A DNA stretch of 64,000 nt. Origin: Clostridia bacterium (lineage in GTDB: Bacteria > Bacillota > Clostridia > TANB77 > CAG-508). Positions 3,677 to 6,154 of this stretch are shown here, piece after piece; positions within the stretch are counted from its first letter, which is position 1; the number at the start of each line of letters is the position of its first letter. A model generated the notes under the pieces. That model made no database searches. It was not told the DNA's origin and saw only the letters and a list, made by a program, of their open reading frames with translations. The DNA is taken from NCBI GenBank assembly GCA_017625035.1, contig JAGALX010000005.1, forward strand, positions 10,570 to 74,569. Direction: 5' to 3'. Made by a program: the position numbers and the translations under genes.

Positions 3677-6154
3677 ATGAAATTTTTTGAAAGATTTTAT
3701 TTAGATAAAGAAAAAGATATAATAGTAAATTTATACAATCAAAATAAAGATGAATTAACATATATAATAGAAACTCCAAATCACAAAACAGGTAACTTAA
3801 TAACAAATCTAGCTAAGCTTTGTGGAATTGAAACTGTAGAAAACGAAAACAATATGAAAATAATAACAGGAACAATTCCAGCTAGTATAAATGCAGACAA
3901 TGAAGAAGTTTATATTTTCAGATTAGGTGGAATTAAAGTTGCAAACATTTTCTTAAATGGAAAAATAGAGCTAAAAGCACAAATTCCAGCAATTAATAAA
4001 ACTTTAATGTCTCAAACAAAAGAATACAAAATAGATATAAAAAAGACACTAATAAAAACATATATATTAAAAAAACATAAATTCAGAACGGATTTACATA
4101 CACACATACACGCAAACTTAAACTCAGATGATCTAATAGCATTAGGAATAAAACATCAAATAAAATATTCTCTTTATTACATAAAAAAATTAGGATTAAA
4201 ACTTTCAGATAAACAAGCAAATGAACTATTTATGCAAAGATGTGCAATAGAGCGAAAATATGCTTATGAAGATTTACCAGGTAAAAAATTAATCAGAAAA
4301 ATAGATGATGAAACATATATAAATTTTGCTGACTTAATATTAAATAATCCAAAAGATATGGAAGAAAATATTGCAAAAATAAGAAATAGTTTAGTTCTAA
4401 TGAAAGATGGTCAAGCAGTATTTACTAACTTAGAAAAATTATACATATATCGTTATGCATTTTCAAAAGGTAAAATAAGTGAAAATAAAATAACAATAAG
4501 AAAAAATAAAATTGACAAAGTAACTAATAAAGAAATTAAAAATATCTTATACAAAATGTTAGAAGATTCTGAAAGTGAAGAATATAAAAACAATACTTTA
4601 CTTCAAGACAAATTACTTTGGGTAGCAAGAGAATACAAAAATCAAGGAATTTATTATGCAGAAATAGCAGTTACATGGATTACTAGAAAAGGTGAAGAAG
4701 GTGCAAAAATATTAGAAGAACTGCATCAAATATTACCAAAAATAGAAGCTGAGACAGGTGTAAAACTAAGATTTTTAGGAGGTCTTAGTAGAACATTAAT
4801 GCCTGAAGAGCAACTAAAAGAGGGAGTTGATGTATTAAAAGTTGCAGCAAAAAGTCCATATATTGTTGGAAGTGATATTATTGGAGAAGAAATAAATGAT
4901 ATTTACAATTTCAAACAAGTTATAAAAGAGCTTGTAGAATATGCGGTAGAAGAGGACAATGGATTCACAATTCGTATACATGCAGGAGAAAATGATAGCT
5001 TAAGATCAAATGTTGTAAGAGCAATAAAATGTATAAAAGAAGGTCTTCCAAAAGGCAAAAAAATGCCAAGATGCCGATTAGGACACGGACTATATGGAAT
5101 CGATGTAGATACACAAGAAGGTAAAGAACTAGTTCAAGACATGAAAAAAAATGGAGTAATTTTAGAATTCCAATTAACTTCAAATGTGCGTTTAAATAAT
5201 TTAACAGCATTAAATTCTCATCCAATAAAAAAATATTTAGCAAACAATGTAAATTGTGTACAAGGTTCAGATGGTTGTGGATTTTACGGAACAGATTGTA
5301 TGGAAGAGCAAATGGCTCTAACAAATCTATTAGATTTAACAGAAGATGATTTAGCTAAAATGAAAAAAGTAGAAGATAATTTAATGGCAGAAAACGAAGA
5401 ATACTTTAAAATTAAATCTAAAAAATTTGAAGAATGGCTAAATGGAAGAAATATAAAAGAAGCAATTTTAGAAGAAGAGCAAATTGAAATTGAAAAAAAT
5501 AAAAATAGAGAATTTAAAATTGGACAAAATACAAATTTAGATTCTGCAGAAGTTTTAAAGGAAAAAATAGTAAAACTTCCTCAAGATAAAATCCCTATAG
5601 TAATAGCAGGAGGCAGTTTTAATTCACAAGGAAGAGAAACTGTGCTAAGTAATGAAGGAATAAATTTATTAAAGGCACTTATACAAAAATTAGATAATGA
5701 AAAAACATATTTTGTAATAGGCCATAAAATGCAAGGATATGAAAAAGCAATAATAGATATTAGTAAAGAGATGAATAAAAAATTTGAAATAAATGCAATA
5801 ATTCCTAAAAAAGTAACAAAAGAATTAGCAACAATCTTATTACAAAAAGAGCTAAATGGAGTATGTATATCAACTGAATCAGAAGAGCTTGGAATATATA
5901 AAAGTTTTAATTATGAAATTTTTGAAAGAAGACCATCTGTAGTAGTTGCTTTTGACGGAAATTCGCCAGTATCTAACTTAGTTCAAGAAGCAAAAAATGG
6001 AAAGGCAGCAGCAAAAATTTATATAAATGATGATGTAGAAGCACTAAAAGAAAAAGCACAATCTTTAGATGGATATGTAACAAAATTCAATGTAAAAAAT
6101 GAAGATATAATTAATAAAATAAAATTAGACAATCCAGAAATAATAATTGCATAA
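3677..6154 (+). CDS. 825-aa multidomain protein: adenosine/AMP-deaminase-fold (amidohydrolase) core plus C-terminal Rossmann (SLOG/LOG-like) domain
   Basis: ADA-family motif series in order: DLHTHIHAN, RIHAGEN, RLGHG, EFQLTSN, GSDGCGFYGTD. C-terminus has IPIVIAGGSF...YFVIGHKMQGYE...VVAFDGNSPVSNLVQEA. SD aaaaggag upstream. Confidence 0.7.
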   Translation: MKFFERFYLDKEKDIIVNLYNQNKDELTYIIETPNHKTGNLITNLAKLCGIETVENENNMKIITGTIPASINADNEEVYIFRLGGIKVANIFLNGKIELKAQIPAINKTLMSQTKEYKIDIKKTLIKTYILKKHKFRTDLHTHIHANLNSDDLIALGIKHQIKYSLYYIKKLGLKLSDKQANELFMQRCAIERKYAYEDLPGKKLIRKIDDETYINFADLILNNPKDMEENIAKIRNSLVLMKDGQAVFTNLEKLYIYRYAFSKGKISENKITIRKNKIDKVTNKEIKNILYKMLEDSESEEYKNNTLLQDKLLWVAREYKNQGIYYAEIAVTWITRKGEEGAKILEELHQILPKIEAETGVKLRFLGGLSRTLMPEEQLKEGVDVLKVAAKSPYIVGSDIIGEEINDIYNFKQVIKELVEYAVEEDNGFTIRIHAGENDSLRSNVVRAIKCIKEGLPKGKKMPRCRLGHGLYGIDVDTQEGKELVQDMKKNGVILEFQLTSNVRLNNLTALNSHPIKKYLANNVNCVQGSDGCGFYGTDCMEEQMALTNLLDLTEDDLAKMKKVEDNLMAENEEYFKIKSKKFEEWLNGRNIKEAILEEEQIEIEKNKNREFKIGQNTNLDSAEVLKEKIVKLPQDKIPIVIAGGSFNSQGRETVLSNEGINLLKALIQKLDNEKTYFVIGHKMQGYEKAIIDISKEMNKKFEINAIIPKKVTKELATILLQKELNGVCISTESEELGIYKSFNYEIFERRPSVVVAFDGNSPVSNLVQEAKNGKAAAKIYINDDVEALKEKAQSLDGYVTKFNVKNEDIINKIKLDNPEIIIA

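Follow-up and report, generated by a model that had tools for sequence, protein, structure and literature searches.

A predicted deaminase and its three-part architecture

We analyzed a stretch of 64,000 nucleotides (nt) of a Clostridia bacterium (assembly GCA_017625035.1, contig JAGALX010000005.1, positions 10,570 to 74,569; hereafter, the window). Our subject is a single gene near guaB and guaA, an open reading frame (ORF) with an ATG start codon at positions 3677..6154 of the window. Its 825-residue product, P0001, joins an orphan N-terminal domain, an adenosine-deaminase (ADA) barrel, a charged helical linker, and a C-terminal SLOG-fold domain. We refer to the proteins that share this architecture as the ADA-SLOG family. 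The parts of the gene, defined with the help of AlphaFold2 (AF2) models, are as follows.

3677..6154, + strand: coding sequence of the N-domain/ADA/SLOG protein P0001 (ORF; full-length homologues)
3677..4078, + strand: N-terminal orphan domain, residues 1-134 (AF2 model, family homology)
4079..5401, + strand: adenosine-deaminase (amidohydrolase) barrel, residues 135-575 (Pfam PF00962, Foldseek)
5342..5497, + strand: long charged helical linker, residues 556-607 (AF2 secondary structure)
5534..6151, + strand: C-terminal SLOG-fold domain, residues 620-825 (separate AF2 model, Foldseek)

The catalytic core is recognizable in both sequence and predicted structure. Pfam A_deaminase (PF00962) matches residues 316-564 with 66.7 bits against a cut-off of 27, and the same match was recovered in a whole-genome hidden Markov model search. 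The ordered ADA motifs are DLHTHIHAN (139-147), RIHAGEN (433-439), RLGHG (467-471), EFQLTSN (497-503), and, as an altered terminal motif, GSDGCGFYGTD (530-540). The metal-binding and catalytic residues (H141, H143, H435, E438, H470, and D532) are kept in order, align to those of ADA, and are invariant in 23 diverse family members. We modeled the whole protein with AF2 from an 18-sequence alignment (predicted local distance difference test, pLDDT, 77.7; predicted template-modeling score, pTM, 0.73). Foldseek matched this model to ADA, ADGF, AMP deaminase, and ADAL and, lower down, to Cad1/CAAD. For ADA, ADGF, and ADAL, E values ran from 4.5e-8 to 1e-5 and target-normalized template-modeling (TM) scores from 0.5 to 0.67, which bears out, for a predicted model, the TIM-barrel similarity to solved ADAs. 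The PDB sequences that match the family profile are classical ADAs, HPAMPD, and ADAL. We predict, with high confidence, that P0001 is an active ADA-superfamily deaminase of an adenine compound.

Several features set this core apart from a classical ADA. D532-G533 aligns with the DD of Plasmodium ADA, that is, the second Asp of the TDD/SDD motif is a Gly; G533 is almost invariant across the family, so that an SDG motif carries Gly in place of the purine-N7-binding Asp of ADA. Family-invariant columns include five arginines absent from classical ADA (R259, R365, R372, R433, and R467). In mouse ADA, an Asp binds the ribose 5'-OH; its position is variable in the ADA-SLOG family. Together, the five arginines and the variable position would fit a phosphorylated substrate. 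A helical insertion of ~165 residues (150-315) follows strand 1 of the barrel. P0001 scores 65.8 bits against the canonical Add equivalog TIGR01430, whose cut-off is 216.55, and falls likewise far under the cut-offs of the NF0068xx (PRK09358) equivalogs.

The C-terminal domain was placed by its fold. Modeled alone, it reached a pLDDT of 88.3 and a pTM of 0.88, and nearly all of its best 50 PDB matches in Foldseek were SLOG-superfamily structures (E values of 5e-5 to 3e-3, TM scores of 0.5-0.6), among them ShosA, MoCo carrier, TRPM MHR, DprA, LOG, and YgdH. P0001's own sequence matched no SLOG-family profile, and a sequence profile of the domain found nothing significant in the PDB. Pfam LSDAT_prok weakly matched 11 of 22 family C-domains (best E value of 9e-5, under the gathering score). 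The domain carries the motifs IAGGSFN..GR.T, GHKMQGYEK, GIYKSFNYEIFERR, and AFDGNSPVSNLVQEAKNGK. It shares its fold with the SLOG sensors (LSDAT/TRPM MHR1-2, ThsA SLOG, PpnN/YgdH, ShosA, and MoCo carrier protein) but differs from them in a conserved glycine-rich loop, which reads GGGGVVxD in distant relatives and FDGNSPVSN (DGNS) in the clade of P0001 (hereafter, the window clade). LOG enzymes are marked by the loops GGGxxGxMG and PGGxGTxxE. Neither is found here; the window clade reads IAGGSFN..GR and FDGNSPVSN instead, with Asn at the place of the acidic residue.

The N-terminal domain is predicted to be beta-rich with two helices, one of them a conserved LTxFExR-like helix, and its AF2 model has a pLDDT of 82-92 over residues 1-100. 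It is homologous throughout the ADA-SLOG family. A search of the PDB with the family profile and member-by-member Pfam scans returned only noise for this domain, and neither the N-terminal ~135 residues nor the C-terminal ~200-250 residues of P0001 had a Pfam match of their own. The linker is modeled as two helices (556-588 and 593-607).

An initial annotation of this DNA, made from the sequence alone, had described most of this architecture. The 825-residue ORF is real and all of its quoted motifs are present; the ordered ADA motifs with an altered terminal motif and the assertion that this is not a standard add/ade gene were borne out by Pfam and Foldseek, by the intact catalytic residues, and by the equivalog scores. 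The N-terminal domain that it could not place had no significant Pfam or PDB match by family profile in our hands either, and the separate model of the C-terminal domain agrees with the SLOG-like fold it suggested. Its further suggestion of a LOG-type N-glycosidase activity did not hold, as the PGGxGTxxE-type loop is replaced by FDGNSPVSN in the window clade, and we rejected that activity on the missing LOG catalytic loops.

Public data hold more than 5,000 homologous proteins. A search of representatives at 50% identity gave 843 matches (170 below 1e-30), and many family members are full length (750-1000 residues, 30-38% identity) and share all three parts. Full-length homologues with 59-86% identity occur in 24 species genomes. 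Uncultured gut Clostridia are the source of these close relatives (Clostridium sp. CAG:492 and CAG:571, Ca. Merdicola, and Ca. Scatovivens); distant relatives, annotated as hypothetical, were found in Clostridia, Saccharibacteria, Ignavibacteriales, and gut 'Azospirillum' metagenome-assembled genomes (MAGs). We found no literature on a SLOG-ADA fusion. What is new about it here is a replicated co-occurrence with guaB, the exclusion of canonical Add, the coincidence with a gap in Hpt and purH, and the partner gene families of a distant branch.

The sequence around the gene bears on how it is transcribed, and the following features flank it.

3612..3640, + strand: candidate promoter, TTGTGT, 17-nt spacer, extended -10 TGcTAAAAT (sequence reading; weak)
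3665..3668, + strand: ribosome-binding site GGAG, 8 nt 5' of the ATG (sequence)
6191..6237, + strand: terminator-like hairpin, 18-base-pair (bp) AT-rich stem, then a U/A-rich tail (RNA fold)
7149-7177: promoter-like site of guaB's own (consensus scan)
7212..8720, + strand: guaB, IMP dehydrogenase, the presumed consumer of inosine monophosphate (IMP) (Pfam IMPDH, 2.6e-106; phyletic coupling)
8741..10330, + strand: guaA, GMP synthase (Pfam GATase and GMP_synt_C)

The candidate promoter at 3612..3640 is absent from the consensus-scan output, its -35 element agreeing at 3 of 6 positions only. A 24-codon upstream ORF (3579-3653) lies ahead of the deaminase gene and overlaps this possible promoter. 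No leader or riboswitch was found upstream of the gene in an Rfam search of window positions 1-16000, which returned nothing relevant. RNA folding gave the 3' hairpin -20.1 kcal/mol (z = -6.9 against shuffles); the consensus terminator scan missed it, since its stem lacks the three G-C pairs required. Because of this hairpin, an intervening DedA gene, and the separate promoter-like site of guaB, the deaminase gene is probably monocistronic, near guaBA and outside their operon. guaB starts 1058 bp downstream of it. The initial annotation had called the gene adjacent to guaBA: it is indeed near, but not directly adjacent, as the DedA gene, which is frameshifted, stands between.

Co-occurrence with guaB and the missing IMP source

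We examined the phyletic pattern of the gene in an order sample of 151 genomes and in a replicate of 201 genomes covering 50 genera of the family. The order sample holds the window clade in 17 genomes and distant ADA-SLOG genes in 8, with both in one. guaB was found in 35 genomes of this sample, purH in 5, purA in 59, and Hpt in 46-53. Purine metabolism is extremely reduced across the order.

The window clade tracks guaB. In the order sample, 12 genomes have both, 5 have the window-clade gene only, 23 have guaB only, and 111 have neither (odds ratio, OR, 11.6; p = 1e-5); for any ADA-family gene, the association with guaB has an OR of 15 (p = 6e-10). The replicate gave the same picture, with guaB in 22 of 23 carriers and in 47 of 178 non-carriers (OR 61, p = 8e-11), and all 15 newly sampled carriers were guaB positive. 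Within the window's own genus, guaB is present in 5/5 carriers and 0/3 non-carriers. The purA gene was no clear correlate (p = 0.07).

All 5 purH-positive genomes among the 151 are without any ADA gene, and 23 of the 30 genomes that have guaB and lack purH carry an ADA-family gene. A canonical Add of ~330 residues occurs in 11 genomes and coincides with ADA-SLOG in none of the 35 genomes concerned (24 with ADA-SLOG and 11 with Add); the two alternate within one genus. Hpt accompanies canonical Add in 9 of 11 genomes and the window-clade gene in 5 of 17 (p = 0.018). Of the 10 genomes that have guaB and lack both purH and Hpt, 9 carry ADA-SLOG (p = 0.005), and the guaB match of the tenth is dubious; in the replicate, 9 of 11 guaB-positive, Hpt-negative genomes are carriers (p = 3e-4). 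The gene thus behaves phyletically like a metabolic Add, which it replaces without a need for Hpt, and ADA-SLOG is only rarely absent from genomes that offer GuaB no apparent supply of IMP. In the window's own genome, guaBA are present, but purH, purA, and hpt were not found, and no Apt match exceeded the cut-off (no true apt).

A proposed nucleotide deaminase feeding GuaB, and rival readings

AMP deaminase is generally considered absent from bacteria, whose route from adenine to guanine nucleotides runs through Add or Ade with phosphoribosyltransferases. We propose that P0001 is a zinc-dependent hydrolytic deaminase that would act on an adenine nucleotide, converting adenosine monophosphate (AMP) to IMP, or adenosine tri- or diphosphate (ATP or ADP) to the inosine nucleotides ITP or IDP, followed by an ITPase (Ham1). 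The IMP would then pass through GuaB and GuaA to guanosine monophosphate (GMP) in small-genome, purine-auxotrophic gut Clostridia. On the model of allosteric AMP deaminase and of PpnN, nucleotide binding by the SLOG domain would let purine-nucleotide pools set the flux allosterically; the N-terminal domain would probably serve assembly or regulation. P0001 would in this way be the organism's bridge from adenine to guanine nucleotides and the bacterial counterpart, in function, of the AMP deaminase of eukaryotes. That it works with GuaB in purine interconversion seems to us somewhat better than evenly supported, while the full statement, a regulated AMP/ATP deaminase supplying IMP to GuaB-GuaA, is the simplest reading and the one we prefer, with about even odds of being right. 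We infer that the substrate is a nucleotide rather than a nucleoside, that the SLOG domain is allosteric, and that the physiological direction is the one given here. The initial annotation had raised the channeling of adenine nucleotides toward IMP and GMP as one option, and this option gains from the guaB co-occurrence in two samples and from the filling of the IMP-source gap left where purH and hpt are missing.

Known relatives frame the proposal. Eukaryotic AMPD and the ADGF-type enzyme of Helix pomatia (AMP deaminase 9nte, the top Foldseek match) are, like P0001, large multi-domain members of the ADA superfamily, and the proposed AMP-to-IMP reaction with allosteric balancing of adenine and guanine pools would be theirs as well. 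Their regulatory domains are unrelated, however; P0001 has SDG where TDD stands, and it has no match to Pfam AMP_deaminase at E<=1. We infer that the likeness to the eukaryote-type enzyme is functional only. Canonical Add shares with P0001 the superfamily, the catalytic residues, and, in this order, the association with guaB, but it is a single domain of ~330 residues that acts on nucleosides, without the ~165-residue insertion and the two extra domains. Add genomes keep Hpt, whereas ADA-SLOG genomes of the order sample are mostly without it.

Several points weigh against a supply of IMP to GuaB by P0001. The gene is not co-transcribed with guaBA, from which the hairpin and a separate gene divide it. 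guaB was not found in 5 of the 17 order-sample carriers (G053, G077, G115, G127, and G131), and Hpt is present in 13 of 23 family-sample carriers, which means that its use extends beyond Hpt-negative genomes. A true Apt, as a source of AMP, was not seen in any of the 14 genomes tested. The phyletic p values ignore phylogeny, and carriers cluster in few genera; the sampled genomes are MAGs, the window's own being 95% complete with 6% contamination. ADA-SLOG is accessory: 24 of the 151 order-sample genomes have it, and in the class as a whole, 4 of 399 do. The combination of a sensor with ADA is the design of the immune effector Cad1, and the wider family has traits of conflict systems. A route at the nucleoside level could also work if an inosine kinase or a divergent phosphoribosyltransferase escaped detection.

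That last route belongs to a rival reading, in which P0001 is an ordinary deaminase of adenosine, deoxyadenosine, or 5'-methylthioadenosine with extra domains, the inosine reaching IMP through an undetected kinase or phosphorylase. Its closest sequence and fold matches are the classical ADAs of Plasmodium, Salmonella, and Vibrio; its phyletic behavior, with guaB co-occurrence and mutual exclusion, is like that of canonical Add; and 13 of the 14 genomes tested have PNP_UDP_1 family genes (11 being carriers). Against this stand the replacement of the N7-binding second Asp by Gly, the invariant arginines that ADA lacks, and equivalog scores of at most 66 bits where the NCBIfam cut-offs are at least 216. 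Carriers, moreover, often lack Hpt (12 of 17 in the order sample, 10 of 23 in the family sample), which 9 of 11 canonical-Add genomes have. We regard this reading as unlikely. Far less probable is a bifunctional protein that unites a LOG-type nucleotide N-glycosidase with a deaminase: the C-terminal fold does match LOG and PpnN (YgdH) among SLOG proteins, but AGGSFN..GR and FDGNSPVSN stand where the LOG loops would be, and the best Pfam affinity of the relatives is to LSDAT, the ligand-binding SLOG clade, and not to the Lysine_decarbox/LOG family.

A third reading makes P0001 a stand-alone, ligand-gated immune effector: its SLOG domain would sense a phage-induced nucleotide, its conversion of ATP or deoxy-ATP (dATP) to ITP or dITP would arrest growth in the manner of Cad1/CAAD and RADAR RdrB, and host Ham1 or NUDIX enzymes would limit the toxicity. 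Cad1 (CAAD) is the adenosine deaminase that type III CRISPR systems carry fused to CARF, and a cyclic oligoadenylate switches it on. Cad1 converts ATP to ITP, a nucleotide-level substrate, and is genomically paired with an ITP-hydrolyzing NUDIX (PMC11645235, PMC12993439); in CAAD/Cad1, this Nudix hydrolase mitigates ITP toxicity (PMC12993439). P0001 resembles Cad1/CAAD (PDB 9c6f and 8z3k, both found by Foldseek) in joining an ADA-fold domain to a Rossmann-like nucleotide sensor, and this parallel to CARF-ADA is the first argument for an immune role. Further arguments are that distant members match PADLOC CARF_ADA, through the ADA part only, at 1e-9 to 1e-14; that ADA-SLOG is patchy and accessory; that its ITPase and NUDIX neighbors echo the CAAD-Nudix pairing (PMC12993439); and that the distant branch comes with small partner genes and lies near relaxase, recombinase, GmrSD, Fic, and methylase genes. 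The sensor of Cad1, in contrast, is an N-terminal CARF domain, whereas that of P0001 is a C-terminal SLOG domain accompanied by the orphan N-domain, and the phyletic pattern of P0001 is metabolic. Membership in Cad1 was rejected, as P0001 has no PADLOC match (CARF_ADA included) and lacks a CARF domain, and as no cas gene was found within 7 kb of its gene. Neither Cad1 nor RdrB is among the PDB sequence matches of the family profile at E<0.01.

The same question arose for RADAR, whose RdrB the initial annotation had offered as an analogy. RdrB is a large ADA-fold protein too, and it deaminates ATP and dATP, but it works with the ATPase RdrA, and no RdrA-like ATPase was found among the ORFs scanned between 735 and 11177; the neighbors of the deaminase gene are an ABC transporter, DedA, guaB, and guaA. 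RdrB is also missing from the listed fold matches of the P0001 model. With no PADLOC match and no partner gene, membership in RADAR was rejected and the analogy falls away. Mobile carriage gave no support to an immune role, for tblastn searches of P0001 against phages and of a distant relative, P0164, against plasmids were both empty. The partner genes of the distant branch are absent from the window clade, and the window's genome carries five unlinked paralogues of the ~150-residue partner, whose family ('small150') is multi-copy. Neighbors of the gene that have a Pfam family mostly look like housekeeping genes and vary between loci, sequences diverge in step with taxonomy (78% identity inside the genus, 56-63% inside the family), and the glycine-rich SLOG loop is altered in the window clade. 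Defense, finally, gives no reason for the tracking of guaB, the exclusion of Add, or the Hpt-negative niche. P0001 is probably not an anti-phage weapon, and we rate the immune-effector reading as doubtful.

If P0001 does feed IMP to GuaB, a hole would be filled in metabolic models of common gut organisms, since widespread uncultured gut Clostridia keep GuaB-GuaA, have no de novo pathway, often no Hpt, and no true Apt, and ADA-SLOG is the one gene that tracks this gap. A new regulated enzyme would be added to purine salvage. One design of sensor and deaminase would have a housekeeping role in one branch and perhaps an immune role in another (compare Cad1 and RADAR), which would bear on the ways in which immune effectors arise from metabolic enzymes or revert to them.

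Gene neighborhoods, the distant branch, and the rest of the window

We compared 27 loci of the window clade. No neighbor is conserved throughout, and all-against-all clustering of neighbors yielded no conserved operon partner. Of the neighbors that Pfam could assign, most resemble housekeeping genes, and they differ between loci. Genes that handle IMP or ITP recur near ADA-SLOG, in unrelated arrangements. guaB is nearby at loci W, L020, L016, and L013; in G025 (genus g4), whose deaminase is 58% identical, it is two genes away. A Ham1 ITPase lies one or two genes downstream at L002, L003, L025, and L026, and purA adjoins ADA-SLOG at L030 and L031 (g15 branch, stand-alone). In the distant branch, we found a Nudt16-like NUDIX gene at L034, a NUDIX gene at L036, a YjjX ITPase 5 kb away at L029, and an IMPDH-family gene at L038. 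ITPase neighbors would fit a nucleotide-level product in a metabolic and an immune role alike.

The distant branch has two partner genes, a PGDYG-like gene of ~170 residues upstream and a gene of ~150 residues downstream, both absent from the window clade. Neither family has a Pfam or PADLOC assignment. Their positions within the loci are listed here.

L029 8408-8869, - strand: PGDYG-like gene, ~170 residues
L033 5414-5929: PGDYG-like gene, ~170 residues
L034 5082-5750, - strand: PGDYG-like gene, ~170 residues
L038 5418-5930: PGDYG-like gene, ~170 residues
L027 8930-9388: ~150-residue gene
L028 9020-9469: ~150-residue gene
L029 5344-5784, - strand: ~150-residue gene
L036 8465-8926: ~150-residue gene
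L037 8501-8959: ~150-residue gene
L039 8568-9038: ~150-residue gene

The ~150-residue gene overlaps or abuts the ADA-SLOG stop codon, with stop-to-start distances of -17 to +2 nt, and L029 holds both partners. With its small partner genes and NUDIX neighbors, the distant branch may be conflict related. More tentatively, the ADA-SLOG family might comprise undescribed, SLOG-gated adenine-nucleotide deaminases spread across immunity and metabolism. The distant branch (PGDYG-like gene, ADA-SLOG, ~150-residue gene, and often NUDIX) would then be a new anti-phage or conflict system, making ITP in response to a nucleotide signal, and the window clade its domesticated descendant, the sole adenine-to-guanine bridge of abundant gut Clostridia and the first bacterial AMP-deaminase-like enzyme; we think this broad picture improbable as a whole.

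Two variants of the architecture were seen. The Ignavibacteriales protein at L034 6001-9051 (1016 residues) has an extra C-terminal domain after SLOG, resembling nucleoside 2-deoxyribosyltransferase, and is followed by the Nudt16-like NUDIX gene. Genome G119 was rejected as an ADA-SLOG carrier and left out of the counts, as it encodes a different fusion of radical-SAM and ADA: an 810-residue protein (G119:C6, L049 5794-8226) that has a radical-SAM/4Fe-4S domain at its N terminus and A_deaminase at its C terminus. A NUDIX hydrolase gene directly follows it (L049 8323-8856).

Around the deaminase gene, the window shows several interrupted or duplicated genes. The DedA/VTT-domain gene between the deaminase gene and guaB (6397-7050) changes frame near 6850, and its C-terminal membrane segment runs on in another frame to ~7050, which marks either a pseudogene or an assembly error. 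Upstream lies an ABC transporter with an ATPase (735-1505), an NMT1/ThiY-like binding protein (2318-3328), and a permease (1495-2305), probably frameshifted, whose sequence is divided between two overlapping ORFs (1495-1959 and 1862-2305). Farther downstream, a HEPN gene (11865-12317) and a nucleotidyltransferase/MNT gene (12321-12662) sit between a truncated 5' copy of dapF (11365-11760) and the full dapF (12717-13568). The pair is flanked by a 300-nt direct repeat, 98% identical (11338-11637 and 12690-12989), and the region 11338-13568 looks like a toxin-antitoxin cassette inserted with target duplication.

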